This document shows, piece by piece, positions 5,996 to 58,879 of a stretch of 64,000 nt of DNA. The stretch lies in the IMG/VR virus record IMGVR_UViG_3300005326_000042, positions 1 to 64,000 of that record; one strand, given 5' to 3'. The number at the start of each line of letters is the position of its first letter. Positions within the stretch are counted from its first letter, which is position 1. Origin of the DNA: a virus (taxonomy: Duplodnaviria > Heunggongvirae > Uroviricota > Caudoviricetes). The notes under the pieces are model-generated. The model was not told where the DNA came from, ran no database searches, and saw only the letters and a list, made by a program, of their open reading frames with translations. The translations under genes were made by a program, and so were the position numbers.

Positions 5996-6360
5996 CTATC
6001 CTTCCATTCCGACTTACAAGGAACTTCAATTTCATAAAAAGACATCTCATCCTCAGAAGGCTCCATTTGAAACAGAACGCTAGCATTGCGAAGAGAGATA
6101 CAAACTTCCTCTCCACCCAACTCAAGAAACTCTTTAATTAATGGAATATTTTCTAACTCAAAACTTCCCTCAATAAAGATGTCGTCTTCATTGTGATGAA
6201 CAAACTTTATGCCTTCTTTAATTCGAAATTCAAGGACATTTCTTGGAACAAATTTCTCATTTGTAATAAGAAAAGAATTGTATCTTGTTAAGTCCAACAA
6301 TTCCTTTAGAAAATATCTTTTGACTATAATACAGGAATCGCCCATTAGGTCAGTTGACAT
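5992..6360 (-). CDS. hypothetical protein
   Basis: Track ORF. Confidence 0.4.
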   Translation of the reverse strand: MSTDLMGDSCIIVKRYFLKELLDLTRYNSFLITNEKFVPRNVLEFRIKEGIKFVHHNEDDIFIEGSFELENIPLIKEFLELGGEEVCISLRNASVLFQMEPSEDEMSFYEIEVPCKSEWKDR

Positions 6361-6367
6361 TTAATAA

Positions 6368-6796
6368 TCACCTTAGAGAATCCAAACATTCATCCATCAT
6401 TTTCGCGGCCTCTTCTAAACTCATTTCTCTATTTTGAGACATTCCACGGCCTAAATATTTGTACCACGAAACGAAAAATTCATGTCCATTCCAACGGAAA
6501 TTGTATGTTTGTGGGACTTCTTCATTCCAACTATAAGCATAAACTTCAAAGACTTTGTTTTCGTAAGAAGAACCTGTATTTCTAAAGGGGTTGTCATCAT
6601 CTCCAAACCTAAGAACAAATCTTGTTTCGATTGCCTCTAAAATTGATTCAACATACCAAGTACACTCTAGTTCTTGATGCGGCTGACCCCAAGCTAATTG
6701 CCCCAATTCTGGTTCGTAGGGTTTTGATTTCTTCGACTCTTCTTCAATTTGCTTCCAAATTTCTAAATCTTCCAGAAAATCTTCTTCTTGAGACAT
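6368..6796 (-). CDS. hypothetical acidic protein
   Basis: Track ORF. Confidence 0.4.
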   Translation of the reverse strand: MSQEEDFLEDLEIWKQIEEESKKSKPYEPELGQLAWGQPHQELECTWYVESILEAIETRFVLRFGDDDNPFRNTGSSYENKVFEVYAYSWNEEVPQTYNFRWNGHEFFVSWYKYLGRGMSQNREMSLEEAAKMMDECLDSLR

Positions 6797-6800
6797 ATAA

Positions 6801-7526
6801 TTACCTCAAAGTTCTTTCATAATCCTCAAATCTCAACTTTGCAATTATAGATCTATCTGATAATCTTGCTACAATTCCTTCTGGGCGACCAAGGGCTCCA
6901 CCATCGAGGGCTGCGTTGGTTATATGAATCATGCTCTTCAACCAATCATGGGTTTCTTTGACATCAATAGGCGGATGTCCAAGATTTATTCGTGGGGTTA
7001 GCTGGAATCCCGAATCCAAGAGTTGTGCCTCGCCATAGAACGTTTGGCCTCCATTGTCTCTCCATGTTGCTATTCTCTCAACGGGCATCTCCAAGATTTC
7101 TTTCCATTCGGGAATAGCTACGATATCAAATAACCTGTGCCCAACCGTCTTACTTCCCGTATATTGTTTGCTATTCTTGGTTACGTTTCCGCCGTATACT
7201 TCGAAATAATATACAGTTAGAATACTAGAAGGCTTGATCCGTTCCGCTATTGGTTTTAGAGCATCGACTATTCCAAGTTGCGGGTTGCCTATCATATCCC
7301 CTTTGGCATATAACAATTCTTCGCGGCTGCCAATGATGTATAGTCCGTCTGGCATCACGATAATTCGCCCATTGACGCCATCGATTTTTTCAGTCAGAAT
7401 CGCTGGGCTATCAAAGGGCACTTGAACTTCATTTACCAGTTTTCCGCGTTCGCCCATTTTGTGATAGGTTAGTATGCTCGGATACTTTGTCATAGAATTT
7501 AATTTGTTTAAATCCACCTTAATCAC
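6801..7526 (-). CDS. ATP-dependent RNA ligase-like nucleotidyltransferase, second paralog
   Basis: Motif I TEKIDGVNGR (KxDG), motif IV PEGIVAR, motif V K-L-R; 241 aa, NTase domain only. Confidence 0.55.
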   Translation of the reverse strand: MIKVDLNKLNSMTKYPSILTYHKMGERGKLVNEVQVPFDSPAILTEKIDGVNGRIIVMPDGLYIIGSREELLYAKGDMIGNPQLGIVDALKPIAERIKPSSILTVYYFEVYGGNVTKNSKQYTGSKTVGHRLFDIVAIPEWKEILEMPVERIATWRDNGGQTFYGEAQLLDSGFQLTPRINLGHPPIDVKETHDWLKSMIHITNAALDGGALGRPEGIVARLSDRSIIAKLRFEDYERTLR

Positions 7527-9115: not shown

Positions 9116-9646
9116 TTAACCAACGGTTTTAATCCACTTATCTAACTCTTCCTTATGCCTCAAATACCCCATCAATTTTGTTTCGTTAGCCTCGCACCAA
9201 TCCTGGTTTTTGCCATAATTCATTCCAATTTCTTCACACAACATTTTATTAACCCAAAGAAACAACTTCAAAAATTCAAAATCTCCTGCGCGAAGAGATT
9301 TTAGTTTCCTACAGCAATAATCGTAACTTGTGTAGTTGTGTCGCAGAGAAGATATAACCAAGCTTTTAGTTGGATGTTTGACCCCGCGAACCATAGAAAT
9401 GAGTTGTTTATAATTTGGAGGAATTTCCCAAAATTCTACCTCGATTTCTAGAATTGTTTCCTCTTCTTTAGTACACTCTTTATAAAAGATTTCTTTTTCT
9501 TCCTGTTTCTTTCGATTTCTCTGAATTACTTCTAGTTTGCGATCCTGTTTTTGTTGGACTTTGAATTCTTTCCACTTTCTCTTAGCTTCTTTTTCTCTAA
9601 TCTTGTATGCTTGCCTTTTGGCTTTCTTAGCTGCTTTTGAAGTCAC
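9116..9646 (-). CDS. hypothetical protein with highly basic N-terminus
   Basis: Lys/Arg-rich first 60 aa; possible nucleic-acid binder. Confidence 0.4.
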   Translation of the reverse strand: MTSKAAKKAKRQAYKIREKEAKRKWKEFKVQQKQDRKLEVIQRNRKKQEEKEIFYKECTKEEETILEIEVEFWEIPPNYKQLISMVRGVKHPTKSLVISSLRHNYTSYDYCCRKLKSLRAGDFEFLKLFLWVNKMLCEEIGMNYGKNQDWCEANETKLMGYLRHKEELDKWIKTVG

Positions 9647-9725
9647 GATAAGTCCCTCCTAAACTTTAATAAAAGAGTATCGCAAACCCATTGGTTTGCT
9701 TAGGAGCACTTATCTGTCTTGGTAT

Positions 9726-10016
9726 TTAACTCTTTCTAAATGGGTGATAGTTTATGCGTCCTCCCCAATTAGATTTAATTCCCCTCAAATTGAAAAATTG
9801 ATATAACCCGAATGTTACAACCATAGGTAGATTACCGAGGTTATAGTAATCATAAAGTAAAAATCCATTACTAAACAGCCACAAAAAGAATCCGAGACCT
9901 CGTAGAGTTTGACTTGTTCCTGATGTCAAAAACGCGCCTGCAATTGCTAAGACCATTGTAACATAGAAGAGAGGTTTTGAGAGGATGTCTTGGAGGATAA
10001 AATTAAAGTCAATCAT
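9726..10016 (-). CDS. small membrane protein
   Basis: Three hydrophobic segments. Confidence 0.4.
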   Translation of the reverse strand: MIDFNFILQDILSKPLFYVTMVLAIAGAFLTSGTSQTLRGLGFFLWLFSNGFLLYDYYNLGNLPMVVTFGLYQFFNLRGIKSNWGGRINYHPFRKS

Positions 10017-26153: not shown

Positions 26154-26228
26154 TTACACCACTCCAAATTAACCAAAAGTAATAAACGATAAATATAGCT
26201 GCAAATAAGATGAAGGATTCTATGAAAG

Positions 26229-26486
26229 TCATAGTAACGTCCTCATATTGATTCTTATTAACTTAGGAGAAATCCTACCAGAATCATATTCAATTTCTCT
26301 ATTAATAACTTCATACGAATAACGATGTGAATCATCGCTAAATGATACGGTATCTCCCTTATTTGGTAATACGGGGTTCGCATAATTTGTACCATAAGCT
26401 AGATGGTTTACCAATACGTCTTCATTGTAATAATAGACATCGGTTCGCATCTTACTCACCCCAAACCTTCTTATAATCTTCTTCAC
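26229..26486 (-). CDS. hypothetical protein
   Basis: Track ORF. Confidence 0.35.
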   Translation of the reverse strand: MKKIIRRFGVSKMRTDVYYYNEDVLVNHLAYGTNYANPVLPNKGDTVSFSDDSHRYSYEVINREIEYDSGRISPKLIRINMRTLL

Positions 26487-29416: not shown

Positions 29417-29917
29417 TCACACCAGCTTCAAACTCTTCGTAATCTTCTTCAACTCATCGGTCTGTTTAAACCCAATACAAGTCATCGTCCCTAGAGGAAC
29501 TTCGGTAAGTCCTGCATCTTTTATGTAGACAACATCATCAAGAGTTGCAAGTTCCTTAAATGTCTCATGGTCTGCCTTAAGAATTATTGCTCTTCCAAGA
29601 CAGTTATATTTGTCCGCGAGCTGCATTGCTATATGGGAAATTTGTGCAGCAATTTTTCCTTTAGACATCTTCAAGCTTTCGTCGATTACGTAGATGAAGG
29701 TTGTGGAGAGGTCAACTTGTCTTGATATCATATTATCTTCAGAATAACGGTGTCTATGACAAAAACAAGTTCCAGCTATTGCGCCGCAGATTCCACAACG
29801 AAAAATATCGTGGTGGCCCGCGAATCCAAAATGTTCTTGACAATAAAAGGCGTTTCTATCTGAGTCAAATGTTCCAGGTTTACCACATTTAACGCATTTA
29901 TTATTTTCGTTATTCAT
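29417..29917 (-). CDS. zinc-finger fused to peptidyl-tRNA hydrolase PTH2 (archaeal/eukaryal type)
   Basis: N-terminal CVKCG...CQEH...CGICG...CFCHRH; then PTH2 core TFIYVIDESLKMSKGKIAAQISHIA and ...DAGLTEVPLGTMTCIGF. Confidence 0.65.
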   Translation of the reverse strand: MNNENNKCVKCGKPGTFDSDRNAFYCQEHFGFAGHHDIFRCGICGAIAGTCFCHRHRYSEDNMISRQVDLSTTFIYVIDESLKMSKGKIAAQISHIAMQLADKYNCLGRAIILKADHETFKELATLDDVVYIKDAGLTEVPLGTMTCIGFKQTDELKKITKSLKLV

Positions 29918-41303: not shown

Positions 41304-42125
41304 ATGACAAATAAAGCTTTACTTGCGGGAATCAATGCCTATATGCAATCTCCGCTTAGAGGTTGCATCAACGATGTACTTGATGTAGAGAACTATTTAC
41401 TAGGAAAGAATTTCCAGTGTACCAAACTTCTCGACTCTTCCGCCACCAAACCCAATATTCTAAATGGACTTAACACACTTATAAACGGAAGCCACGCAGG
41501 AGATGTATTGGTGTGGTATTTTAGCGGCCACGGATCTTACATTTTAGATAATAATGGAGATGAAACAGACGATCAATATGATGAGTGCTTGATTTCTTAT
41601 GACTACTTCACAAACGGAAATTTCATTCGTGATGATGATTTAGCTGAAATATTTACAAGAATTCCAGAAGGAGTTTTAGTTGAGTGTATCCATGACTCCT
41701 GCTTTTCAGGAGATTCCACAAAACTATTTAATGATCTAAATTCAAATACCCGTTTTGTAGATATCGATACTAATTCTATAGATTTAAAATCTTCTGCTTC
41801 AAAATATATTCCTATCCAGCTTTCTAGACCTAAAAAGAAAGTTGTGAAAATTGGAAGGATAGGACATAAAGTCAGTAATATTACCATGAACCACATCTTA
41901 TCAAGCGCCTGTGGTGAAACTCAGACTTCAAGCGAGGTTCGGGTAAACGGTCAATATCGCGGAATTTTTACATACCTGCTTACAAGAAGACTCAGACTTT
42001 CTCCAACTATGAGCCGATCTGGAGTAATAAGTAATGTTCGAGCAAACCTTGCTGCACTAGGGTTGTCACAAATACCTATGTTAGAGTGTATCGATAGTGA
42101 AAAATTAGAGCCTTATTTCTCATAA
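41304..42125 (+). CDS. caspase-like cysteine peptidase (peptidase C14 / metacaspase family)
   Basis: Catalytic His in VLVWYFSGHGS and catalytic Cys in IHDSCFSGDS in caspase order (His before Cys); N-terminal KALLAGINAY; SD GAGGT. Confidence 0.65.
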   Translation: MTNKALLAGINAYMQSPLRGCINDVLDVENYLLGKNFQCTKLLDSSATKPNILNGLNTLINGSHAGDVLVWYFSGHGSYILDNNGDETDDQYDECLISYDYFTNGNFIRDDDLAEIFTRIPEGVLVECIHDSCFSGDSTKLFNDLNSNTRFVDIDTNSIDLKSSASKYIPIQLSRPKKKVVKIGRIGHKVSNITMNHILSSACGETQTSSEVRVNGQYRGIFTYLLTRRLRLSPTMSRSGVISNVRANLAALGLSQIPMLECIDSEKLEPYFS

Positions 42126-42142
42126 TTTTTTGAGGTTTTCCT

Positions 42143-42514
42143 ATGCAAGACTCAGAGGCTCGGATTTTGACCGCTATTGGCGAGTTGAAGACTGATATTC
42201 AGAATATAAAGGATGATTTGGACGAACTAAAAACGTTCAAGGACGAACTACAACGGACCCAACAATCATTTATAGATTATAAAGAAACTAGAAAAGATCT
42301 TCCGAAACAAATTTCTGATCTGAAGGAGAAAGTTACGGTTTGCCAAACAAATTGTATTAATGAGTCCAAGGTGTTTGAACAAGTTTGTAAAGAGGTTAAA
42401 TTCCTAATGGGATGGTATAAAACAGGAACAGGAGTCGTTATATCCGTGAATGTTCTTGTTGCTGTTTTAGTTCTCGTTTCTAAATATATTGATATTTCTA
42501 AATTATTTTCGTGA
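42143..42514 (+). CDS. coiled-coil protein with C-terminal TM anchor
   Basis: Heptad N-terminus, C-terminal GVVISVNVLVAVLVLV. Confidence 0.45.
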   Translation: MQDSEARILTAIGELKTDIQNIKDDLDELKTFKDELQRTQQSFIDYKETRKDLPKQISDLKEKVTVCQTNCINESKVFEQVCKEVKFLMGWYKTGTGVVISVNVLVAVLVLVSKYIDISKLFS

Positions 42515-42523
42515 GGGATTGAG

Positions 42524-42940
42524 ATGGATATTTCATTTTTAGCTGCTGTTATACTGTTCTTACTGGCTTCCGCTCTGGTTGCTTGGTATCTGGCTTCATA
42601 TAAGAGATTGTCTGTAATTCTAAAATTCCTCCTCATCACTCCTTTTATTCTCGGTTTTGCAATAGCTCAAGATGAGATCGAAGAAGGGCTTTTTGTAGAC
42701 GATCTTACGGGAATAGAAGTCACAGAAGACGACAAACCTCTCATCCTCAATCCCGATATTTTAACAAAATCCGCAGAAGCAATTAATAACGCGGTAGAAT
42801 CTGTAATTAAACTTCCAGAAATCATCCCAGACGGTTTATCTCAGGAACTTCAAATTCAGGAAAAGAATAGAGTCTTTTTGTTAGATAATACCTTGAATTT
42901 CACACCAAGAAATAACACTACGGAGTTGATTGTGGTTTGA
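42524..42940 (+). CDS. membrane protein with two N-terminal TM helices
   Basis: MDISFLAAVILFLLASALVAWYL and LLITPFILGFAIA. Confidence 0.45.
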   Translation: MDISFLAAVILFLLASALVAWYLASYKRLSVILKFLLITPFILGFAIAQDEIEEGLFVDDLTGIEVTEDDKPLILNPDILTKSAEAINNAVESVIKLPEIIPDGLSQELQIQEKNRVFLLDNTLNFTPRNNTTELIVV

Positions 42941-43107
42941 ATTCTGACGAAGAGCCGTTGGTTTGTAGAAAATGTTTTTGCAGGTTTTCTTGTGGGGAGA
43001 GGTGTGAGAAAGCAAAAGAAGTTAATTTTATCTAATTAATTTTTTTAAATTACTTTGTTAATATAGACAACTTCTAAACTATACTCTTTACAAGGAGAAT
43101 TGTTTGT

Positions 43108-43749
43108 ATGGCTAAATTATATAATGCTCCGTTTCAAGGTCCGAGGTACACGCTTCACGGACCTTTGGCGTCTCGTCCTACTACTGCCAAGGAAGAGACA
43201 TATTTTCACGATACTACGAATAATGAATGGTACTACTATACTTCGTCTGCTTGGAATAAAATAGGAAAATCTGACGTTCTCCTTAAAGACGGAACAATTG
43301 GATTAACCGCAGATTGGGACGCTGGATCTATAGATATCCAGGCAGAAACTTTTACTTCAGATGTTCCAATCGGAACCGCGCCTCTCACCGTTACCTCTAC
43401 CACAAAAGTTACCAATTTAAATTCTGATCAGGTCGATGGTTCAGACCTGTCAGATCTCCTTGCAAAAGAAGAGACGCCGTATTTAGGAAGAGGAACAAAT
43501 TATCAAATAACTGCGGGAGATTATATTATCGCGGTTACTTGTGTTGGAACAGATATTGATGTCACTCTTCCAAACCCGACCCTCAAGAAGACGGTGATTA
43601 TCAAAAAGCTAGATAGTACGTCTCATGCTGTTAACATTGAAGCCTACGACGGAGAAAACATTGAGGACAGCGCTACCGATCTTATTCTGACTCACCAGTA
43701 CGACTCTGTGACTCTTTCCAGTAACGGAATTAATTGGTTTATTGTTTAG
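43108..43749 (+). CDS. tail fibre / baseplate-associated protein
   Basis: Thr/Ser/Gly-rich beta-type composition, precedes fibre module; SD AAGGAG. Confidence 0.45.
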   Translation: MAKLYNAPFQGPRYTLHGPLASRPTTAKEETYFHDTTNNEWYYYTSSAWNKIGKSDVLLKDGTIGLTADWDAGSIDIQAETFTSDVPIGTAPLTVTSTTKVTNLNSDQVDGSDLSDLLAKEETPYLGRGTNYQITAGDYIIAVTCVGTDIDVTLPNPTLKKTVIIKKLDSTSHAVNIEAYDGENIEDSATDLILTHQYDSVTLSSNGINWFIV

Positions 43750-43759
43750 GTGATTTAAT

Positions 43760-44224
43760 ATGACTTATTTTGGTTTATTGAAAGGAAAGACCGTCCTCGG
43801 AGTCGTAAAAGAATGGCTCATGGACGATGACGGTCATGGGCAGGTGGATGTGGTGTCCACAGCAGCGCCAGCCACCCTACCTTTGCCCACAGGCGCGGCT
43901 ACGGAATCGACTTTGGCGGCGATGAACGGGAAGCTCGGTGCTCTCAGCAGAACTCCCCGCTCGGGTCAGCAAACGGTAGCCGCAGCGGGAACAGAAGTCG
44001 CTCTAGGTGCATCCCAAGTCTATAGGGAAGTTACAGTGATTGCCAACAGCGACAACACCGGAAACATCTATATTGGTAACGACGGGACTGATCATGTATC
44101 AAGTACCACGGGCGGCAAGCTTCCAGCGGGCGGATTTGCCACTTTCCACAATGTAGATATCTCTAAGATATTTGTAGATGTTGCGGTCTCCGGCGAAGGT
44201 GTCTCCTGGTTTGGTGAGATTTGA
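43760..44224 (+). CDS. fibre-associated structural protein, paralog A
   Basis: GQQTVAAAGTEVALG...VTVIANSDNTGNIYIGNDGTD...GEGVSWFGEI; paralogous to 44473..44865. Confidence 0.5.
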   Translation: MTYFGLLKGKTVLGVVKEWLMDDDGHGQVDVVSTAAPATLPLPTGAATESTLAAMNGKLGALSRTPRSGQQTVAAAGTEVALGASQVYREVTVIANSDNTGNIYIGNDGTDHVSSTTGGKLPAGGFATFHNVDISKIFVDVAVSGEGVSWFGEI

Positions 44225-44472
44225 TGTTCGGCCAGCATCACTGCTCAAAATGTGGCCTAAAATATAACAATGCGTCAGTAGACGGGCGAGATTACACTTA
44301 CACCTGCAAGAACTGCTGCCAAGTTGAAACCTTCCACATGGATGGTACTAGCACCACATTCGACTGCCCGATATGCGCGAAGACTGCATTGAATGCAAAT
44401 TTCGCGCCCAATAACGTGAACAGGAAGATGGATTTCTCGGATAAATATAACTCAATGTATCGGGTGATTTGA
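44221..44472 (+). CDS. zinc-finger small protein between fibre paralogs
   Basis: CSKCG...CKNCC...CPICAKT. Confidence 0.4.
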   Translation: MMFGQHHCSKCGLKYNNASVDGRDYTYTCKNCCQVETFHMDGTSTTFDCPICAKTALNANFAPNNVNRKMDFSDKYNSMYRVI

Positions 44473-44865
44473 ATGGCAGATAGCAATTTGAAGATTCTGA
44501 ATGCGGATGAAGATCCGAAATGGCAGAAGGTGAAGGGGGCGCAAACGGAGGGAGATCCCGGATCGCCGTACGTGTGCCTGGATGGGAGCAATACCCCGAA
44601 GAGTGGACAGAAAGCAGTGGCATCAGCAGGTACTGCGGAAGCCCTGGGAACGACCCAAGTATTCAAGCGGGTTACAGTGGTTGCCAATGCCGATAATACA
44701 GGAGATGTGTATGTTGGCAATGACGGTGCTGACGATGTCAGCAGCATCACGGGAATAATCTTACCCCCGGGCGGCTGGTTCGACTGGTTCTTTGTGGATA
44801 TCGCTGATCTCTATGTAGATGCTGAAGTATCTACTGAAGGCGTGTCTTATGGGGGAGAAATATGA
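44473..44865 (+). CDS. fibre-associated structural protein, paralog B
   Basis: GQKAVASAGTAEALG...VTVVANADNTGDVYVGNDGAD...TEGVSYGGEI. Confidence 0.5.
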   Translation: MADSNLKILNADEDPKWQKVKGAQTEGDPGSPYVCLDGSNTPKSGQKAVASAGTAEALGTTQVFKRVTVVANADNTGDVYVGNDGADDVSSITGIILPPGGWFDWFFVDIADLYVDAEVSTEGVSYGGEI

Positions 44866-47039
44866 GCGCAGGACAATTTATTCAGGGAGTGCTACGCGGT
44901 GCATATCGCATATATAATGTGCACGATTTTGGCGCGGTGGGGGATGGCGTCCACGATGACACAGCAGCATTCCAAGCATGCATAACAGCCGCCGCTGGAA
45001 AGGGGCCTGCCATCGTTCCCAAGCCACTTGTTCGATATCTAGTATCGTCTCAGGCCCCGATGGCGTATGGATCATGGAATTATTGCATCGCTGTTCCCAG
45101 CCACACGCAGATAATTGGTCTCGATAGGCCCGAAATTCAGCTCAATGCCGCAGATACAGATGTTTGCCGAACTATATTTACAAATTCGGATTGGGTAAAC
45201 GGGAATACTGATATCGAGATCGTGGGACTGTCTATAGATGGAAATTACAGGAACAGACAGGCGGGAACAGCTAATAATCTGGTACTTATTCACATGGGAG
45301 TATCAGACGCTGGCGCTACCGTTGGATGCACTGACATTCGAATAGAGTCAAATAAGTTGTACGATGGAATTCTCGGTATCGGACTATATAACTACATCAA
45401 AGGTGCTGCCAAAAACAGCAACTGCAAGGTCAATTCGAATGTCATCGACTCGATGCAAAATTTCTGCATAGAATTCGACTCCACCGATAACTCTGAGATG
45501 AGTGGCAACCAATCATCGAACAGTTTGAATTACGATGTCGGCGGGGCGTATAATCTAATATTTTGGTCAAACAACAACACCGTTGATGCAAACCAATTCA
45601 AGTCTTCGAATATCAACAACACGGGCATCTGGATCAAGCACGGCAGTTCGGGAAACATCATCACTAACAACAACATCATTGCTCCGATGGGGTGCATCTT
45701 CTTCGAGACCGAGCCGGTTGAAACCGCTTCGATCACTGAAAACAACACTGTATCGGAAAATTACTTCGAGGAAACCGGCGCTTCGTCCAAGTTCTTGATC
45801 TACAATGCAGCTGGATCGACATTCAGAAACAATACAATCCGTGACAACAAATTCGTAGGTTGGCCTCTGTGGATCAGGGCAACGCAAACCGCTGCGAGAG
45901 ATTGCACAATCGATGGTCTTTATATTCGTAACAATGAATTTATTGTGCCCGACAATGTTAAGAACATGTGCATAGGATCAGCCGCCACAGAGGGCGGCGC
46001 CGGCACGTCCTGGGACAATATATTCGTCGAGGGGAACACATTCAGGAGGGGGTATATTGCTCTAGTTGGAAAAGTCAATCGCCTCTTCATCCGACGCAAC
46101 AAATTCATAGCAGTGGCCGGAACTCAGATCAATATCGATACTACAACATCGATTACAGAAGCTTACATTGATGATAATACAGCGATTGGCGGAAATAACT
46201 TCGTCTACACAGATGGAACGCTCCTGGGGCTGAAAACTCTCAGGCGCAATACGATTATTGCAAGCGGTGGGACGGCGATAACAGTCGGATCTGCAAATGC
46301 AATAGACATTTCTGACAATGATATAGATGTACCGACGACAGGATACGCATTCAATATATTAGCCGGATCACATACATTTAAGCGGAATAAAATTCACGAT
46401 GGGCAATACGGAATTACCGCCCCAGTGGGCACCGTTCAAACAATAAAGGATTGTGAGTTTTCGGGGTTGACTGGAGCCACACCTCGCCTAAAAGGCGCGG
46501 CAACGTATATTACCGATGTTTCGACAGAGCATTTCCAAGGTGTATTAGCGGCATCGGCTACTGCGATTAGATCAAATGAAGATCTGAGCGCGGCAACACC
46601 CCTCACCTTTACACTGGATGCTCAACCCGATGTTCCGAGGCGGCTTGTATGGGCCTTTGATGCGCATGCTCAGATAACAGCATTCTCCATTACTTTTACT
46701 GGAGTGAATGCGAAGGACGTTGCCGTTACACAAACGATCACAGAAGCTTCTGGCTGGTCAGGTGTCACGAATGAAGCATTTGCCACTATCACATCTATCA
46801 TCATGACCGCCAGAACAGGAACTGGTGCAGGTGATACGATTGATATCGGTGTCAATGATGTGATTGGCTTGGCAACCTCGCTTGATGTCGCGGCGGATGT
46901 GTTTAAGGTGAAAAAGAACAGTGCGAATTATCCCGCAGCAAGTTATACGGTGGAAGATGTTTATGACACGATCGACTTGAGCACGGGCGGGGCGATAACA
47001 GGCGGGGATGATTTCACGATTTGGTACAAGGCACTATAG
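44862..47039 (+). CDS. tailspike/receptor-binding protein with pectate-lyase-like right-handed beta-helix
   Basis: YNVHDFGAVGDGVHDDTAAFQACI N-terminal motif of the pectate-lyase superfamily; many N..I/N.F beta-helix rungs; 725 aa. Confidence 0.6.
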   Translation: MSAGQFIQGVLRGAYRIYNVHDFGAVGDGVHDDTAAFQACITAAAGKGPAIVPKPLVRYLVSSQAPMAYGSWNYCIAVPSHTQIIGLDRPEIQLNAADTDVCRTIFTNSDWVNGNTDIEIVGLSIDGNYRNRQAGTANNLVLIHMGVSDAGATVGCTDIRIESNKLYDGILGIGLYNYIKGAAKNSNCKVNSNVIDSMQNFCIEFDSTDNSEMSGNQSSNSLNYDVGGAYNLIFWSNNNTVDANQFKSSNINNTGIWIKHGSSGNIITNNNIIAPMGCIFFETEPVETASITENNTVSENYFEETGASSKFLIYNAAGSTFRNNTIRDNKFVGWPLWIRATQTAARDCTIDGLYIRNNEFIVPDNVKNMCIGSAATEGGAGTSWDNIFVEGNTFRRGYIALVGKVNRLFIRRNKFIAVAGTQINIDTTTSITEAYIDDNTAIGGNNFVYTDGTLLGLKTLRRNTIIASGGTAITVGSANAIDISDNDIDVPTTGYAFNILAGSHTFKRNKIHDGQYGITAPVGTVQTIKDCEFSGLTGATPRLKGAATYITDVSTEHFQGVLAASATAIRSNEDLSAATPLTFTLDAQPDVPRRLVWAFDAHAQITAFSITFTGVNAKDVAVTQTITEASGWSGVTNEAFATITSIIMTARTGTGAGDTIDIGVNDVIGLATSLDVAADVFKVKKNSANYPAASYTVEDVYDTIDLSTGGAITGGDDFTIWYKAL

Positions 47040-47080
47040 GGCAAAAGGAGAACCCCAGTTCTCCTAAGTCCCTCATTTCA

Positions 47081-47485
47081 TCATTTTTGGCTGAGAACTT
47101 CCGTATTAGTCCTATGTGATATCATTAGGCTCTTCAGTGCAGCGTTCTGCGACTCTATGATATCCAAGGCCCGCTTTGACCAATCTGCTACTGATTCTCC
47201 TGGCTTCCCCGCACATTCTTTGAGACGGTCGTAATCCGCTGCATATACCCAAATCATTTTCTTTTCATCCGACTTCTTTTTCGCGGATAAAAACATGCAC
47301 TTATCGAAGGATACTTGCCCTGGATACAATTTAAAATCCCTTAAATTGATCTCCTCTATATCCGGATAGAAGGTGCAATTGATAAAACGCACTTCGGCGC
47401 TCTCGTTTATAGCATCCGCGATTATTGTTTCGCACTCCGATAGGTTCAGAACCTCATCAAATCGTCTTATTATTTTTGGCTCCAT
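47081..47485 (-). CDS. hypothetical protein
   Basis: Track ORF. Confidence 0.4.
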   Translation of the reverse strand: MEPKIIRRFDEVLNLSECETIIADAINESAEVRFINCTFYPDIEEINLRDFKLYPGQVSFDKCMFLSAKKKSDEKKMIWVYAADYDRLKECAGKPGESVADWSKRALDIIESQNAALKSLMISHRTNTEVLSQK

Positions 47486-47665
47486 GTAGAAAACTTATAA
47501 TCTTTATAATATTTATAACCATCGTACAACATAAGTCCAAAAGTACATGACTATTCAGCAAAGTCGATCATTCCAATCATTATAGGAATACATAGATCCT
47601 AGAGCGCGCCCCTATGCGGCAGATAGCGAAAATAGGAGTATAAGAAAAGGAGAATAAAAAATAGA

Positions 47666-47935
47666 CTAAAGTCCTAGATGCCGAAGAGTCGAGGATTTCC
47701 TTCGCTTCGGTCTCTCCTTCTGAATCTGATACGCAGGCCGCTCGACCTCTTTCGGCACAGCGTCCACGATGTCGGACTTGCCACAGTTCGGGCACGGTCT
47801 GCCCTCTGGTTCAACCTCGTGGATCTTGTCGGGCTTTAGGGTGGGCATTCTAATGCCTCTGTGGAGGTGGGTCCACTGGAGGAAGTGATGCTCGCAGTCG
47901 AGGCAGCGTTTCTCCTGGACGCCGACGATCTTCAT
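47666..47935 (-). CDS. zinc-ribbon protein (GC-rich operon)
   Basis: Start at internal ATG (MKIVGV) overlapping upstream stop (ATGA); CLDCEHH...CPNCG. Confidence 0.4.
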   Translation of the reverse strand: MKIVGVQEKRCLDCEHHFLQWTHLHRGIRMPTLKPDKIHEVEPEGRPCPNCGKSDIVDAVPKEVERPAYQIQKERPKRRKSSTLRHLGL

Positions 47936-48075
47936 GGCTTCCTCTTGCGAAGATCTATCTCCGCTTGAAGGGCCTTGCGACATACGGCGGCCACGTTGAT
48001 CTCCTCCAGATCCTCTAGGGATTTTTGCATCTCTTCGGAGATCTGGAAGGTTTTTGGGATGGGGTATTTCGCCAT
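47932..48075 (-). CDS. ribbon-helix-helix-like small protein (GC-rich operon)
   Basis: Internal ATG (MAKYPIPKTFQISEEMQKSLEDLEE...) coupled to neighbours. Confidence 0.35.
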   Translation of the reverse strand: MAKYPIPKTFQISEEMQKSLEDLEEINVAAVCRKALQAEIDLRKRKP

Positions 48076-48617
48076 CACTGCCTGCCCCCAAATTTCTCTA
48101 GGATGGGCGTCAGACAAATGTCTAGCGCCATTCCTCGGAAATGGCATTCGTGCATTGTTACGAGCGACGCGACCGCACGCTCCTCCTCAATTTCTGGAGT
48201 GGTGACCTCCCCGAGGTCGATCAATGCCTGGACAACCCAGTCAGGCATGGTCTCTATCGGGGTCGCTGGCTCCTGTGGCCACCATGGGCACCCCTGATTT
48301 GGCGGGGTAACTCGGAATCGCTGTATCTTCCCATCTTGGAAAGATACGAACTGGTAATATTGATCGTTTATCCCATACCAGGTGGCAATTACGCAACCTG
48401 GATGAGCTTTCAGCCAGTTATCCCAATCGTCCCATCCCACTCGAAGGGATGTCTCCCCGGCTATTCTCTCATGATCCGTACTCGCTGTTATCCAGCGAGA
48501 GTCAGTCCCATGATGGGACTGAAACGTTTTGCTCTCACCCGGTTGGGGCTCTTTCCGCCCCTTCATACTATCTCTCATATTTGGCATAGCATCTACTAGT
48601 ATCTCATAGTATATCAA
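48075..48617 (-). CDS. hypothetical protein (GC-rich operon)
   Basis: Start uncertain (possibly internal MPNMRD). Confidence 0.35.
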   Translation of the reverse strand: MIYYEILVDAMPNMRDSMKGRKEPQPGESKTFQSHHGTDSRWITASTDHERIAGETSLRVGWDDWDNWLKAHPGCVIATWYGINDQYYQFVSFQDGKIQRFRVTPPNQGCPWWPQEPATPIETMPDWVVQALIDLGEVTTPEIEEERAVASLVTMHECHFRGMALDICLTPILEKFGGRQ

Positions 48618-49006
48618 TGTATCGCCTTAATCAGTGTGTACTTTTGCCACCTACCATTCAGGTACATCAAGCAGAACAAGGACTATAGGAATAGAAAACA
48701 ACGCCTACCGATATCGGTTATAAAACAGCAAAATCGACCCTCTGATATCGATGTGCTTCTAGGATAGAATCTTGGCTGGAAGTACATGATTATCGAGGTA
48801 GCTCTGCCCTCCAAAAGAGCTTTTCACAGATAACCAATAGCAGTAAAACCACGCACTGCGAACAATGGACGCCCCAATGACTGTTCATAAGAATCCAATC
48901 GGAGAAACTAACAATCGAAATTATCCTCATTGAGAAATAAAATCTACTAAAAGAGAAGAAACCATCCATCGAAATCTTTTTATAGTAATAGATATATTAA
49001 TTCATT

Positions 49007-49597
49007 ATGAAAAAGAAACTCAAAGAATCCTCCACAGATATTCCTCTCGATTCTATATCTATTGATCCAAACCTGTATTCTGATTCCAGCAGTAATACCA
49101 GCACAGACTACGAGGGTTTAACCACAAGCTCAAATGTGACTTTAGATCCAGAGGAAGGCCAATGGAACTATACAAACGAGTTGCCACCTCTAGAAGGAGC
49201 AAAGTATGAACCTTTTGATTTAACTCCTTTCTCTCCAGACGAAGAAAGAGAATTTATCCCCAGCAAGAAATCTGCTCGTTTCTATGGACAGCTCGAATTC
49301 CCTAAAAACGTAACCATAATTCGCGCTCCAGAAAAGGAATATCAATTCTCCTCTCTCCTCGCTGTAAATCAGATCTTGGATTCTCTAGAATTCAACACCA
49401 ACGATTCCCGCGCGGCAAGTGAGGCGGTTAGAAACGCACTGATTGCGAAGTTTCCGAATCTGCCTGTGGGTTTAGCAAAAGACGATTCTGGTTTTGTGGT
49501 AAACGTAATCTGGTTTGCGCCTAATGTGAGGAAATATTTTGATTACGGAACGAAGAGTTGGATGGTGTTTCATCCGAGCAATGTCGTGATGATTTGA
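49007..49597 (+). CDS. hypothetical Ser/Thr-rich protein
   Basis: Track ORF. Confidence 0.4.
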   Translation: MKKKLKESSTDIPLDSISIDPNLYSDSSSNTSTDYEGLTTSSNVTLDPEEGQWNYTNELPPLEGAKYEPFDLTPFSPDEEREFIPSKKSARFYGQLEFPKNVTIIRAPEKEYQFSSLLAVNQILDSLEFNTNDSRAASEAVRNALIAKFPNLPVGLAKDDSGFVVNVIWFAPNVRKYFDYGTKSWMVFHPSNVVMI

Positions 49598-49705
49598 ATT
49601 CTGGATTTAAATATTTGGAGTATTTGGAAAGGATCAAAAGATGTAGTGTAGCATACGAAAGTTGGAAGAAAATTGTAGATAATTTTGGTAAAAAGGTGAT
49701 AAAAG

Positions 49706-49909
49706 ATGAGTGAAGATGGATGTTGTTCTGATGAAAAGTGTTGTTCCTCAGAAGATGAATGTAAAATAGTTGTATGTGAAGCTTGTGAAAATAAGGGATG
49801 GCAACTTAATCTGGTAACAGGAATGAACGAGATATGTCAGGTTTGTTGCGGCTCAGGAATTCGGTTTAAGTGTAATTGCGGAGACATTCCGAGTTATGAT
49901 ATGTTTTGA
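49706..49909 (+). CDS. Cys-rich small protein
   Basis: CC..EKCC...C..CEAC...CQVCCGSG..FKCNCG. Confidence 0.4.
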   Translation: MSEDGCCSDEKCCSSEDECKIVVCEACENKGWQLNLVTGMNEICQVCCGSGIRFKCNCGDIPSYDMF

Positions 49910-49922
49910 AGGGTGATGAGAA

Positions 49923-50300
49923 GTGAGAAAGCTGAAATGTGCAAATTGTTCTAAAATTGTAGAAACCGAAAAAGAATTGAAGAAATATGTGTGCCCCTCT
50001 TGTGGCGCAATAAATACCCCTGAAGATCCTAATGCTGGTTTTGGAGATCAAGCGTGTGGTTGTCTCTTACCGGATGGGTTTGAGTTCAGGCTACCAGCGG
50101 GCAAGATAGGAAACAAATTTACTGGATATAAGTACATTAGTCCTGATAATGGCGACGAGTTAACTAAGACTGAATGGATGCTCTCATTTGGACTTGACCC
50201 AGATTTGGCTCTGGAATATATGAGGTCAAATGCTGCCGCAGATGAGAGAGATGATGATGTGGATCTGTCCACTCTCGGCAAGAAGAAGGTGAGAAAGTGA
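49923..50300 (+). CDS. zinc-ribbon protein
   Basis: CANCS...CPSCG. Confidence 0.4.
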   Translation: MRKLKCANCSKIVETEKELKKYVCPSCGAINTPEDPNAGFGDQACGCLLPDGFEFRLPAGKIGNKFTGYKYISPDNGDELTKTEWMLSFGLDPDLALEYMRSNAAADERDDDVDLSTLGKKKVRK

Positions 50301-50725: not shown

Positions 50726-51538
50726 TTATACTACATATTTTTTACTAAGGTTGCAGTTAGCACATTCTAATCTGTAATCTTCTTTCAGAGTTTCGGGCCA
50801 ACCTTGTTGGTAGAATCTTTCTAATAATCTGATTCCAGTCTTTTCTCCGTTTTTTCTTTGCTCCGCCCCATCGTTGTGAATGTGGGAGATTGTTAAAAAT
50901 TTTAGTTCTGATATTCCACAAGGGCAAGGACCGAAGAAATCAAATGCCATCTTCCAAAATTTAGTTTGTCGTCTTTGTTGTCTTGTCTGGAGGGTGGGTG
51001 GAAAATCTAAATATTCTTTTGTCCTTCCAAGATTATGATTATAACACAATACCCTTAAATTAGATAATTTTTCTTGTGGATAAATCTTATTTAAAATTGC
51101 AGAATATAAAGATATACTATATAATCCGTCTTTCCTATCTAGGTGTCCTGTTTTATCGATATGATCTATTGACAGAAAGTCCACGTTGGTCACATCACAA
51201 AGACTACATTTACAGCCTCCAAGAACATTTAATACCTGAATCTTTATGTTTTTTCGATATTCTTTTACTTTATATTTATTTTTTTCTTTCTGTTCTTTTA
51301 TTTTTTCTCTATTTTCTTTATAATAACTTTCTTGATATTCTTTTATTTTATGCTTGTTTTCTTCCCGATATTCTTTTTGTCTTTTTCTATTGTGTTCATC
51401 GCTCCAATAAGATATTGTAGACTTACCCACTCCACACTCTTTTGCAACTTGTCTTTGGTTCTTTTTCAAAACATTTAATTGATAATCCAACCATTCTTTA
51501 TCTCGATAAAGAGGTTCTTCTTTCTTAAAACCACTCAT
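50726..51538 (-). CDS. HTH + double HNH-motif endonuclease, paralog 2
   Basis: Same architecture as 40006..40875 (KEWLDYQ...VAKECGV...TISYW; LRVLCYNHN; ECANCN). Confidence 0.6.
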   Translation of the reverse strand: MSGFKKEEPLYRDKEWLDYQLNVLKKNQRQVAKECGVGKSTISYWSDEHNRKRQKEYREENKHKIKEYQESYYKENREKIKEQKEKNKYKVKEYRKNIKIQVLNVLGGCKCSLCDVTNVDFLSIDHIDKTGHLDRKDGLYSISLYSAILNKIYPQEKLSNLRVLCYNHNLGRTKEYLDFPPTLQTRQQRRQTKFWKMAFDFFGPCPCGISELKFLTISHIHNDGAEQRKNGEKTGIRLLERFYQQGWPETLKEDYRLECANCNLSKKYVV

Positions 51539-51696: not shown

Positions 51697-51974
51697 AGTT
51701 AACACCAAATAAAATTATTTTTATAATAATATAAACTATTAGTATTTAAATGTTTCGCTAGAATTAACCGAAAGTTTTAAATATTAAAAGTGATGATAGA
51801 TAATATCACGGAGATTTAAAAATGACAGATCTAGAATGGTTCTGTTGGATTGCTTATCAAGAAAATATGTGGAGCAAAGATCTAGAAATCTCTGAATACA
51901 TCCATGTTTTAATTGAAGAAACAAATTGGTCTAATTTACAGAATGGACCTATTTGCGGAATTTAAAAAAAGAAA

Positions 51975-53861: not shown

Positions 53862-54245
53862 TTACTCACCATATAGCCACTCAAAGAAATCTAAATACAT
53901 AGAATAAAAATAACTTACGGGTTCTTGAATATCTTCCCAATTAGTTAAGGTTTCGTGGCTTAGTGTTTCTCGAAGTTCCTCTTTTCTATCTAATCTTCCT
54001 CTTTTGCCGCCTTTGAGGGGTTTCTTTCTGGTGTTTAACCTGCTCTGGGTACACCAAGAGCATTTGCAATGACCCTCGGTTTGTTTATAGGGATGGTATC
54101 CGATCCAAGGAAGGAACCATTTTGTGTATTTATACTCCAGCTCCTTGAGATCTTCGGCAGTAAGTTTTTGGCTCTTAATCCATCCCTTAAAACCTGGGCC
54201 GCCAATGATGGGTTCTTTATTGTAGGTTCTTCGCGTTTTGGTCAT
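53862..54245 (-). CDS. hypothetical basic protein
   Basis: Start moved to MTKTRRTY so it does not read through the tRNA-like element. Confidence 0.4.
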   Translation of the reverse strand: MTKTRRTYNKEPIIGGPGFKGWIKSQKLTAEDLKELEYKYTKWFLPWIGYHPYKQTEGHCKCSWCTQSRLNTRKKPLKGGKRGRLDRKEELRETLSHETLTNWEDIQEPVSYFYSMYLDFFEWLYGE

Positions 54246-54248
54246 ATA

Positions 54249-54296
54249 CGGGCGCGGCAAGAATCGAACTTGCTATGAAAACCAACTTTCGCGCCC
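54249..54296 (-). other. tRNA-derived minihelix (acceptor stem + T-arm only)
   Basis: GGGCGCG-AAAGTTGGTTTTCATA-GCAAG-TTCGATT-CTTGC-CGCGCCC-G: perfect 7-bp acceptor helix and 5-bp T-stem with TTCGATT loop; no D or anticodon arm. Confidence 0.45.
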
Positions 54297-54365
54297 AAAA
54301 AAAATAAATAAAACTAGGCAACCCCGCCTAGCCAAAGGATAGATCTATGCCTCCAAAATCCTTCC

Positions 54366-54773
54366 TCACATCAACCCCCAACTATCCCTCAATATCCCAT
54401 CGTACACGGCGTCCATATCAGGCTCTTGCCAGTTTTCTACATTCGTGTTTAGGGTGAATAGTAGGTCATAATCCATGCTGAACCAATCTGACATCATCGG
54501 GTCATAGAAATCGTTGTAAACGCTCTGAATCCCATCAAGATTATCCGTAGTCTGCTGGCTTGTGGTATCTGTGAAGAATATTGAACCATCGTCTCCGACT
54601 ACCATCTCCGAGTTCATGAATACGTCTTGCCAGGTTACTAGATTGTTGTTATCTCCCCAATAGTTGTCTCCCTCCAACAATGGATCTGTATATGCCATCG
54701 TCGTTGGTATTCCTACCGCTATACCTGCTGCCAGTATCAGCAGCAACACTATTCTATATGCTTGCATTTTCAT
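54366..54773 (-). CDS. secreted protein
   Basis: Signal peptide MKMQAYRIVLLLILAAGIAVG. Confidence 0.45.
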   Translation of the reverse strand: MKMQAYRIVLLLILAAGIAVGIPTTMAYTDPLLEGDNYWGDNNNLVTWQDVFMNSEMVVGDDGSIFFTDTTSQQTTDNLDGIQSVYNDFYDPMMSDWFSMDYDLLFTLNTNVENWQEPDMDAVYDGILRDSWGLM

Positions 54774-55786: not shown

Positions 55787-55963
55787 TCAACTCTTATCAA
55801 ACATTTCCTCCATTGGAATTTCTACAGGGGCCCAATCTTTCTGTCCTTCAAGTTTATAATATCCTACAAAAGACAACTCCTGTAATTCATTTTCTTTAAA
55901 ATGTGCTTTAATTCCTATATCTTCACTGAAGATGATGGTAACGTATCCGTACATAGATATCAT
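55787..55963 (-). CDS. hypothetical protein
   Basis: Track ORF trimmed to internal ATG so it does not translate the tRNA. Confidence 0.35.
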   Translation of the reverse strand: MISMYGYVTIIFSEDIGIKAHFKENELQELSFVGYYKLEGQKDWAPVEIPMEEMFDKS

Positions 55964-56076
55964 GGGCAAGGTAGGATTTGAACCCACATCGCGAGTTTTG
56001 GAACACACGACATCGGTCGTGTTAGAGCAAAACTAAAGTTTTGCGACTCGCTACTTATCCAATTAGTGACATGCCC
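55963..56076 (-). tRNA. putative intron-containing tRNA (anticodon CCA/Trp or CAA/Leu depending on intron placement)
   Basis: 5' GGGCATG pairs with 3' CTTGCCC + discriminator A; T-arm GTGGG-TTCAAAT-CCTAC; anticodon stem CGAGT/ACTCG; about 42-nt insert with two perfect 7-bp hairpins; 114 nt; no encoded CCA. Confidence 0.5.
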
Positions 56077-56402
56077 GATAAATTTTGAACTGTTAACCTT
56101 CTTTCAGCTATATCGATCTCAACTATGTAGCATATTTTTGGTGGTTGAGTTTCTGATATTCGCTTACTCTGGGCTGCAACCCGCGTCCATACACAGCAAG
56201 GTTTGGACTCCAGTTATTAGATGCTGGCAAACTCTTTGGACACCAGATCCCAATCTAAAACGTTGGGTCAGCAAATCATATTCCAGAGGTGGAATCAATG
56301 CCAATATCTGGGTTATCTTTTGATAACTATGAACCGGAAACGAATTAATTCGTTTCCGACGTTTTATCTGCGGAGTTAGCTTGCCTCCACTGAAGAATAT
56401 AC

Positions 56403-58030: not shown

Positions 58031-58879
58031 TTAAAGAACACCTGTCTGTTTGCTTCGCTCCTTTTTAATTCTTCTACCACAATTGCAGTTTGCGCACTCT
58101 AAACAATAGTCTTCTTTTAAGGATTTGGGCCAACCTATTTTGTTGAAATCCATAAGTAAACGCACCCCAGTATGTTCCCCCTTCTTTCTTTTCTTGTTGC
58201 CATCATCATTTTTGTGCGATACTTGAAGAAATTTTAACTCCGTGATTTCGCAAGGACAACCGCCAAATAAGCTAAAAGCTTGGTTCCAAAGTCTAGTATA
58301 ATATTTTTGAATAGTAGTTTGTAATTCGGGTGGGATATCTAAATATTCTTTTTGTCTGCCATCATTATGATTCCAGCAGAGAACTCTGAGATTTGATAGT
58401 TTTTCTTTTGGATAAGTTCCTCGCGCAACAGAAATGTATAATTTTCTTCCCCCAAATCCAGATTTCTCATCTAAATAACCAGCTGAATCTATATGATCTA
58501 TTGTGAGTAGATCCGTATCGGTTATATCACATAACTGACATTTACAGCCGCCTAAAACTTCAAAAGCAGCCTTTTTAATATTTTGAGTATATTCTCTTCT
58601 TCTTTTACTTATCGCTTCTGAATTATTTCTTGCGTATTTTCTGGCGTGCCCTTTTAGGCGTTCTTTATTATTTTTTCTATAAATCTTAAAATAATTGTTA
58701 AAATGTTCTTTATTATTCTGCCGATATTGCTTCTGTGAATCATCATACCAATAAGATATGGTTGTATAGCAAACCCCACACTCTCTTCCAATTTGTGCAT
58801 AGCTTTTTCCTAAAACCTCAATTTGTTCCTTCAACCATTCTTTATCTCTATACCGCAGATCTTTTTCAGACCCGCTCAT
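58031..58879 (-). CDS. HTH + double HNH-motif endonuclease, paralog 3
   Basis: KEWLKEQ...IGRECGVCYTTISYW; GGCKCQLC...IDHID...LRVLCWNHN; GGCPCE...ECANCN. Confidence 0.6.
   Translation of the reverse strand: MSGSEKDLRYRDKEWLKEQIEVLGKSYAQIGRECGVCYTTISYWYDDSQKQYRQNNKEHFNNYFKIYRKNNKERLKGHARKYARNNSEAISKRRREYTQNIKKAAFEVLGGCKCQLCDITDTDLLTIDHIDSAGYLDEKSGFGGRKLYISVARGTYPKEKLSNLRVLCWNHNDGRQKEYLDIPPELQTTIQKYYTRLWNQAFSLFGGCPCEITELKFLQVSHKNDDGNKKRKKGEHTGVRLLMDFNKIGWPKSLKEDYCLECANCNCGRRIKKERSKQTGVL

Follow-up and report, generated by a model that had tools for sequence, protein, structure and literature searches.

A tRNA-like minihelix abutting a start codon in a virus with archaeal-type expression signals: a candidate minimal t-element

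In the window analyzed here, i.e., a stretch of 64,000 nucleotides (nt) of a member of the Caudoviricetes (IMG/VR record IMGVR_UViG_3300005326_000042, positions 1 to 64,000), we detected a 48-nt element on the minus strand that combines the acceptor stem and the T arm of a tRNA and has neither a D arm nor an anticodon arm. This element, here called the minihelix, is located between the end of an operon and the start codon of a small open reading frame (ORF), ORF127, which is not preceded by a Shine-Dalgarno (SD) motif. Based on its structure and its position, we propose that the minihelix is most likely a minimal viral t-element, i.e., a tRNA-like processing signal, which would be cut by RNase P and tRNase Z and would release a near-leaderless mRNA for ORF127. 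The support for this reading is circumstantial and comes from one lineage, and we give it a probability of about 45%.

Read from 54296 to 54249 on the minus strand, the minihelix consists of GGGCGCG / AAAGTTGGTTTTCATA / GCAAG-TTCGATT-CTTGC / CGCGCCC / G. All 12 of its pairs are of the Watson-Crick type, seven base pairs (bp), exclusively G:C, in the acceptor stem and five in the T stem. The T loop holds the universal residues U54, U55, C56, R57, and A58, and is closed by the pair G53:C61. The linker between the acceptor stem and the T arm contains a D-loop-like AGUUGG, as seen by comparison with a full viral tRNA (contig L092), and its guanines may possibly be equivalent to G18 and G19. The discriminator G is followed by the bases UAU, with no encoded CCA and no inhibitory C residues. 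Both the minimum free energy structure and the centroid predicted by RNAfold are the structure described here (−18.6 kcal/mol, z = −2.4), which is retained when 173 nt of context are folded along. The element is thus exactly as described in the initial annotation, and its position between two co-directional minus-strand genes was likewise confirmed.

A fold of this kind is not expected by chance. In a scan for a TTCRA loop enclosed by five and then by seven Watson-Crick pairs, in which the linker could be up to 100 nt long, one such element was found in the window, whereas 1500 shuffles of the window gave 0.0047 each on average. Analytically, 0.004 elements are expected per window, and this value decreases to ca. 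5e-7 when the acceptor stem has to be all G/C in DNA with 38% GC. The same sequence is also present in three independent assemblies of this virus (contigs L063, L064, and L065), which are 100% identical over their overlap. The minihelix is thus genuine and did not arise by chance.

The minihelix shares with tRNAs a 7-bp acceptor stem, one discriminator base, and a canonical T arm. On the other hand, the minihelix has no anticodon, besides lacking the D and anticodon arms, and 16 unpaired nt lie between the acceptor stem and the T arm. ARAGORN predicted no tRNA genes in the window, and Rfam gave no match of the minihelix to the tRNA family RF00005; its best match within the clan was to tRNA-Sec, with 15.7 bits against a gathering score of 47 (the Rfam thresholds with which this score was compared are 29-47 bits). 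The split or mini tRNA suggested in the initial annotation is therefore not supported. An archaeal intron-containing or split tRNA was ruled out, as no credible bulge-helix-bulge motif was found in the minihelix and its flanks or in a second, 114-nt tRNA-like RNA of the window, and both acceptor strands of the minihelix lie on one 48-nt stretch. We conclude that the minihelix is tRNA-derived but not a decoding tRNA. It does resemble the t-elements of plant mitochondria, since AGTTCGATTCT agrees with their T-arm motif GGTTCRANYCC at 9 of 11 positions (PMC1920247), and the two differences fall on the paired positions 52:62, where G:C has been changed jointly to A:U.

Other classes were also considered and rejected. 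The tRNA-like domain of a tmRNA was ruled out because the minihelix has a G:C pair at 3:70 and a total length of 48 nt, and because neither ARAGORN nor Rfam called a tmRNA. An intrinsic or oligo-T terminator was ruled out as well, since the T-run precedes the minihelix, GUAUAUGACC follows it, and the terminator-like hairpin is a separate structure (54333-54312). The mascRNA-menRNA model (RF01684) had no match at E values up to 10 in the region 54100-54450.

The two flanks of the minihelix bear on its proposed function. At its 5' side, the stop codon of the upstream gene is followed by two hairpins and then by the tract TTTTATTTATTTTTTTT, the T8 run of which (54304-54297) directly abuts G1 of the minihelix. 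In this virus, sense-strand runs of at least seven T mark the ends of transcription units. No combination of a B recognition element (BRE) and TATA box is suitably spaced for a start at G1; going upstream, the first consensus promoter is met at ~59098, with the T8 terminator in between. The sequence located 30-23 nt ahead of G1, CGGGGTTG, rules out a promoter with its start at G1, and the minihelix would therefore be made only within a longer, read-through transcript. At the other side, the 3' end of the minihelix lies 3 nt from the ATG of ORF127.

ORF127 is a genuine gene with a correctly placed start codon. Its codon score is 0.24 over the whole ORF and 0.22 over codons 1-30, compared with 0.05 or less in 99% of off-frame pieces. 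A search with a word index had given no match for ORF127, but a full HMMER search recovered 16 representatives with alignments from residue 1 of ORF127. Most of these homologues begin at, or within 10 residues of, their own N-terminus, with P0022 (residue 129) as the exception. Since the alignments start at residue 1 and the first 30 codons score as coding, we consider the assigned start codon to be right. The family shares the motif MTRTxRxYNKxPIxGGPGFKGW, followed by a Cys-rich, basic region, and is made up of unannotated small proteins. A plus-strand ORF of 69 aa (amino acids) that metagenome gene callers place over the minihelix (54069-54278) was rejected as an antisense shadow of ORF127, with a non-coding score of −0.01.

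No SD-like motif precedes ORF127, and no TATA box lies at the leaderless distance (22-24 nt upstream). Without either, ORF127 has no visible route to translation unless a 5' end is created near its AUG. The lack of an SD motif is a departure from its homologues. In six independent loci of the ORF127 family (L094, L095, L096, L098, L099, and L100), the gene lies tightly behind its upstream neighbor, and a clear SD-like motif is found ahead of it in four of the six (GGTGAT, AGGTGGAT, GGGAGA, and GGAGAG), the remaining two, L094 and L099, having only a weak GGATGG or GGTAA. Three of the six homologues start with TTG, and none of the six loci has a minihelix. The combination of an ATG start, no SD motif, and a tRNA-like element is thus unique to the copy of ORF127 in the window. 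Leaderless initiation needs a 5'-proximal AUG, and the pattern in the window is consequently the one expected if the minihelix had replaced the SD motif.

Based on these observations, we propose a theoretical scheme for the processing of the minihelix. Transcripts that read through the hairpin and T8 run at the operon end would carry the minihelix, which would fold as the top half of a tRNA, with the acceptor stem stacked on the T arm and capped by the D-loop-like linker. Host RNase P would cut 5' of G1 (54296), leaving the upstream mRNA with a 3' end formed by the hairpin and a U-tail. Host tRNase Z would then cut after the discriminator G (54249), giving rise to a near-leaderless mRNA, 5'-UAU-AUG..., from which ORF127 could be translated. 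The enzymes involved are compatible with such a scheme, as RNase P, tRNase Z, and the CCA-adding enzyme accept minihelices made of acceptor stem and T arm (PMC3714273). The RNase Z of methanomicrobial archaea cuts directly after the discriminator and tolerates the loss of the D, anticodon, or T arm, and the methanogen enzyme requires an acceptor stem and a mature 5' end (PMC7479834). C residues right after the discriminator are reported to suppress trailer removal by the RNase Z enzymes studied earlier (PMC7479834), and here the trailer begins with UAU. Of the roles suggested in the initial annotation, a processing signal recognized by RNase P or tRNase Z is hence the one favored by the context, from which we infer the cleavage itself.

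The coordinates of the minihelix, of its parts, and of the features around it are listed in Table 1.

Table 1. Positions in the window of the minihelix, its flanking genes, and the second tRNA-like RNA.
Feature	Position	Strand	Remarks
Minihelix, whole	54249-54296	−	7+16+5+7+5+7+1 = 48 nt
Acceptor stem, 5' strand GGGCGCG	54290-54296	−	Element positions 1-7; U precedes G1
Unpaired linker AAAGUUGGUUUUCAUA	54274-54289	−	16 nt, in place of D arm, anticodon arm, and variable region
T arm GCAAG-UUCGAUU-CUUGC	54257-54273	−	Canonical T-loop residues; closing pair G53:C61
Acceptor stem, 3' strand CGCGCCC	54250-54256	−	
Discriminator G	54249	−	Predicted tRNase Z site
Upstream gene (133-135 aa)	54366-54773	−	Signal-peptide-like N-terminus; last gene of operon from promoter ~59098
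Operon end	54297-54333	−	Directly upstream of minihelix; 9-bp hairpin 54333-54312 and tract TTTTATTTATTTTTTTT 54313-54297
ORF127	53862-54245	−	ATG at 54245, 3 nt past discriminator
114-nt tRNA-like RNA	55963-56076	−	Rfam tRNA, 30.9 bits; sole Rfam tRNA match in window; missed by ARAGORN
58-aa ORF without SD motif	55787-55963	−	Codon score 0.39, strongly coding; second in-frame ATG at 55954

A second instance of a tRNA-like RNA at the start of an ORF without SD motif is present in the same window. In this 114-nt RNA, the acceptor, D, and T arms are intact, but 49 inserted nt, which contain two 7-bp hairpins, take the place of the anticodon loop. No bulge-helix-bulge motif was found in it, and it corresponds neither to a regular tRNA nor to a regular intron-containing tRNA of archaea. 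The A that serves as its discriminator is at the same time the first base of the first ATG of a 58-aa ORF. Among 16 loosely defined candidates for a T arm plus acceptor stem in the window, three are followed within 13 nt by an ATG that opens an ORF of at least 50 aa, i.e., the minihelix, the 114-nt RNA, and an A/U-rich chance match on an SD site, the latter rejected as a tRNA-like element (26154-26265). A third tRNA-like element was found neither in the window nor in the 7.7 kb beyond it on contig L063. Besides, the 326-nt stretch between the radical SAM gene of this virus and the 114-nt RNA (56077-56402, minus strand) is non-coding in all six frames and has a strong structure (z = −3.0 when the tRNA-like part is included in the fold). 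It may represent a longer non-coding RNA, with RNase P generating the 3' end.

The main rival explanation is that the minihelix is a neutral relic, i.e., a viral tRNA gene that has lost the D stem, the anticodon arm, and the variable region, and that has no function, its adjacency to ORF127 being incidental. We regard this as rather unlikely, although more can be said for it than for any other alternative. Full tRNAs of unrelated viruses share the acceptor and T stems of the minihelix, e.g., the tRNA-Ile(GAU) of contig L092 (GGGCGCG...GCAAG-TTCAACT-CTTGC-CGCGCCC-A), and 22-23 of the 25 nt at the 3' end are identical to such viral tRNAs. The D-loop-like AGUUGG kept in the linker, the resemblance of the neighboring 114-nt RNA to a disrupted tRNA, and the fact that no relative carries the minihelix all fit a relic as well. 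On the other hand, none of the 12 pairs and none of the conserved T-loop residues has been lost, and at least two separate deletions would be required, because both the 5' strand of the D stem and positions 22-48 are missing. Moreover, a relic would explain neither the loss of the SD motif of ORF127 relative to its homologues nor the fact that both tRNA-like elements end at ORF starts without SD motifs, and it would leave ORF127 without visible means of translation initiation. The resemblance of the 3' 25 nt to tRNA 3' ends noted in the initial annotation was borne out, with 21-23 of 25 positions matching real tRNAs, but the relatives of this virus lack the element altogether.

The distribution of the element in databases was evaluated further. 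A search based on PrimPol retrieved relatives of this virus (L066-L073) with 41-44% identity on contigs of up to 142 kb, which keep a 157-aa ORF that in the window lies downstream of the minihelix. No minihelix, ORF127, upstream neighbor of ORF127, or tRNA-like match was found in these relatives within 10 kb. The three contigs of this virus are identical and show no variation, and the element is absent from all relatives. The region 53-56 kb had no megablast match against phages, both neighboring proteins had no match by tblastn against phages or by exact look-up, and a 182-aa ORF retrieved only itself in the word-index search. The minihelix pattern was absent from IMG/VR, and its 60 matches in JGI metagenomes were nearly all due to chance in G+C-rich DNA. 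Among these matches, L060 is an ordinary tRNA-Lys, and L027/L033 and L045 are unrelated tRNA-like elements. In L027 (Ga0306901_1001922, 4578-4755, plus strand; the same in L033), a 52-nt minihelix-like RNA (GGGCGCG...CGCGCCC-A) with a weak match to the mascRNA model is followed after 5 nt by a 121-nt RNA matching the tRNA-like domain of tmRNA, both behind a bacterial-type −35/−10 promoter. Small RNAs corresponding to the top half of a tRNA may be more widespread.

Several points weigh against the minihelix acting as a t-element. Most archaeal transcription should end at the T8 run that immediately precedes the minihelix, so that the full helix would exist only in read-through RNA. The minihelix has been seen in this virus only, in the three identical contigs. 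The tRNA-Leu genes of the relatives L096 and L098 have no ORF starts beside them, and nothing comparable was found among the stems next to ORF starts in the relatives. The statistical support for the observation that both tRNA-like RNAs of the window abut ORFs without SD motifs is modest. Holzle et al. in 2012 reportedly found other predicted tRNA-like elements of Haloferax to remain uncleaved in vitro. Finally, a TATA-like TTTTATTTA is located at 54313-54305, and could start an RNA at ~54280-54283, within the linker, that would have no acceptor stem. We consider a promoter at this position unlikely, because it has no CGAAAG BRE and because GGGCGCG falls in the region to be melted, which is A/T-rich in the real promoters of this virus.

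This TATA-like sequence is also relevant for another interpretation, in which the minihelix would be an uncleaved, cis-acting structure of the 5' untranslated region, serving either as a clamp for stability or as an operator beside the start codon. In one variant, the ORF127 protein would bind the fold and repress its own translation (thrS-type mimicry), and in another, the T-arm hairpin alone would be transcribed from the TATA-like box in the T-run, the spacing of which predicts the start mentioned above. Any factor bound to a structure ending 3 nt before the ATG would occlude initiation, and the 3' end of the linker, UCAUA, could pair with UAUGA at the start codon, as read from the sequence. 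In either variant we find this interpretation improbable, as there would be no initiation route on a structured leader of 37-50 nt without SD motif, and an operator should be conserved with its protein family, whereas it is absent at six homologous loci. A start within the linker would leave the perfect, all-G/C 5' strand of the acceptor stem without a role, and the putative promoter has the same shortcomings as already described, namely no CGAAAG BRE and a GGGCGCG where real promoters are A/T-rich.

The genes of this virus bear on a further alternative, in which the released 48-nt RNA itself, perhaps CCA-tailed, would be the product and would act in trans as a mimic of the top half of a tRNA, i.e., as a decoy or cofactor for enzymes that recognize the acceptor stem and T arm. 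Such enzymes might be host defense nucleases targeting tRNAs or a viral module of RNA ligase, ORF127, and radical SAM protein. We regard such a mimic as improbable, and rate it marginally above an uncleaved leader structure. The virus does encode two RNA-ligase-family proteins, a PTH2, and a radical SAM/SPASM protein, and in both tRNA-like RNAs of the window the top half is conserved while the bottom half is lost or replaced. In the relatives L096, L097, and L098, the ORF127 homologue is directly upstream of a homologue of the RNA ligase encoded at 547-1308 of the window, with a radical SAM gene and a tRNA-Leu(UAA) gene nearby, which suggests a module for RNA repair or modification. However, the minihelix is not conserved in viruses with the same protein module. 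It has no promoter of its own and lies behind the T8 terminator, so that its abundance would be low, and neither TROVE/Ro60, nor a nuclease, nor a nucleotidyltransferase was detected as a partner protein among the ORFs scanned.

Some further observations concern these RNA-related genes. The RNA-ligase homologue of L098 is found in two tblastn segments about 1 kb apart (4669-4926 and 5926-6432; also in L097), and this split may reflect an intein, an intron, or a homing-endonuclease insertion. In L062 (IMGVR_UViG_3300035698_005697; 9599-9974, plus strand), an Rfam match to tmRNA (68 bits, E = 7e-25; no tmRNA by ARAGORN) lies 26 nt upstream of a homologue of the radical SAM gene of the window (46% identity), and represents a second case of a tRNA-like RNA beside this radical SAM family. 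This match is a hint that the L062 virus may infect bacteria. In the window itself, two RNA-ligase-family paralogues (547-1308 and 6801-7526), a PTH2 of the archaeal/eukaryotic type (29417-29917), and a caspase-domain protein (41304-42125) are encoded, and such a set of genes directed at RNA and tRNA is unusual for one virus.

The initial annotation had also suggested that the minihelix could be an attP-like remnant, i.e., an integration site copying the 3' end of a host tRNA gene. The 3' 25 nt are indeed shaped as the 3' end of a tRNA, and the tRNA-Arg of a few Halobacteria and bacteria has an acceptor stem, a T loop, and a G73 identical to those of the minihelix. This proposal is nevertheless not supported by our results, and we judge it very improbable. 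No integrase or recombinase was found among the window ORFs scanned with Pfam (those of at least 150 aa and those adjoining the minihelix) or in the precomputed Pfam list of the L063 genes, in agreement with the statement of the initial annotation that the window has no integrase. The 24 nt at the 3' end have no exact match in 185,579 species genomes, and the best match to a cellular tRNA is 21 of 25 nt. There is no second copy or partial repeat of the minihelix in the window and there are no att duplicates. Moreover, an attP site does not need the complementary 5' strand, which would remain unexplained, and this is a large virus (a window of 64 kb and relatives with contigs of 129-142 kb) with the gene content of a lytic virus. 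The sole mobile-element gene called on L063 is a TnpB (IS605 OrfB/Cas12f-like; L063 15326-16507), about 10 kb beyond the minihelix and outside the window, and a TnpB gene is also located directly upstream of PrimPol in the relatives L071-L073.

For the t-element we favor, the host of the virus is of importance, as the processing enzymes would be those of the host. The window encodes NrdD, a D5-type primase-helicase with a PriL domain, an SNF2 helicase, an ATP-dependent DNA ligase, PrimPol, and a tail-fiber-like protein, in addition to the two RNA-ligase-family proteins, the PTH2 peptidyl-tRNA hydrolase, and the radical SAM/SPASM protein. When the primase was compared with a phage database, the best-covering match (H1) and two more of the top 20 were viruses of Methanosarcinales and Methanoculleus, and most of the other matches listed were phages of Bacillus, Lactobacillus, and similar hosts. 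A BRE/TATA promoter motif, CGAAAG-n-TTTAAATA, recurs in the window, e.g., at 59098, 41092, 40017, 29967, and 19124 on the minus strand and at 51769 and 48970 on the plus strand. In first genes without SD motif, 22-24 nt separate the TATA box from the ATG, a leaderless geometry, while SD motifs of the GGAGG/GGTGAT type precede 62 of 84 window ORFs, the internal genes using sites of the GGTGAT type. The tRNA-Leu genes of the relatives lie 23-24 nt behind a TATAAATA box. Overall, the host machinery appears to be archaeal, given the promoter motif, the leaderless first genes, the type of SD motif, the PTH2, the primase with a PriL domain, and the matches to methanogen viruses.

Other features of the window were noted. 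The region 42000-50000 is an island of higher G+C content (0.40-0.48 vs ~0.37) around the tail-fiber-like gene. A perfect T-arm-like hairpin within this island, at 48434-48450 (minus strand; ATCCC-TTCGAGT-GGGAT), has a reversed closing pair (C53:G61), lies inside overlapping ORFs, and is probably a chance match. A 76-nt repeat with 72% identity (50740-50815 and 58072-58147) reveals a common C-terminal domain in two proteins of 270 and 282 aa with similarity to helix-turn-helix and HNH proteins. Their genes may be paralogous homing-endonuclease-like genes that flank a variable region containing both tRNA-like elements.

We are not aware of any description of such a viral t-element system from archaea or archaeal viruses. 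If the cleavage proposed here is confirmed, a non-decoding tRNA mimic that makes an mRNA end would be documented for the first time in a virus with an archaeal-type system, and the minihelix, having 48 nt and neither a D arm nor an anticodon arm, would be the most compact signal of this sort in nature. It would also tie the enzymes of tRNA processing to whether translation is SD-led or leaderless, a choice about which little is understood in archaea, and would provide a compact natural part for defining RNA ends in methanogens, comparable to the use of the Haloferax t-element for crRNAs. More broadly, and more tentatively than for the minihelix alone, we hypothesize that top halves of tRNAs could serve as punctuation that switches internal cistrons from SD-dependent to leaderless translation by means of host RNase P and tRNase Z, and that a CCA-tailed minihelix might also serve the RNA-ligase/ORF127/radical-SAM module as a decoy or cofactor; this wider scheme is possible but doubtful. 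Should the minihelix only be a relic, it would still be a record of the decay of a viral tRNA gene in which the top half persists.

Punctuation of this type is well known from mitochondria, where tRNA-shaped RNAs excised from a polycistronic transcript define the ends of mRNAs, which begin at or beside the AUG and have no SD motif. Mitochondrial punctuation relies on functional tRNAs and is genome-wide, whereas here it would involve two elements, both non-decoding, and the rest of the genome relies on promoters and SD sites. In MALAT1 mascRNA and MEN-beta (RF01684), a small tRNA-like module likewise ends a longer RNA, and a cut by RNase P and RNase Z sets the flanking end, but these RNAs are eukaryotic and have an anticodon-like stem, and RF01684 weakly matches the unrelated 52-nt element of L027 and not the minihelix. 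The tRNA-like domain of tmRNA also combines an acceptor stem and a T arm with an unpaired D-loop instead of a D arm. It differs in being bacterial, in its G3:U70 pair, and in the long helix leading to the tag reading frame, whereas the minihelix has G3:C70 and nothing between the linker and the T arm.

The closest parallels are known t-elements. Those of plant mitochondria are, as the minihelix, non-decoding tRNA-like folds with a conserved T-arm motif; they lie inside longer transcripts, their ends coincide with 5' or 3' termini of mRNAs and are attributed to RNase Z and RNase P, and one of them is placed directly at a start codon, at position +2 of rps4 (Forner et al. 2007, PMC1920247). Unlike the minihelix, they are organellar and usually imperfect cloverleaves, several with mapped ends, whereas the minihelix is viral, archaeal-type, and reduced to an acceptor stem, a T arm, and a 16-nt linker. 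Within the archaea, the t-element upstream of the 5S rRNA of Haloferax volcanii (Holzle et al. 2008, 2012) is reported to be cut by tRNase Z and RNase P (PMC4326828, PMC4946936). It is an archaeal tRNA-like processing signal at which the RNA that follows receives its 5' end from tRNase Z, as proposed here for ORF127, with the differences that it is cellular, experimentally verified, and involved in the maturation of an rRNA instead of an mRNA.

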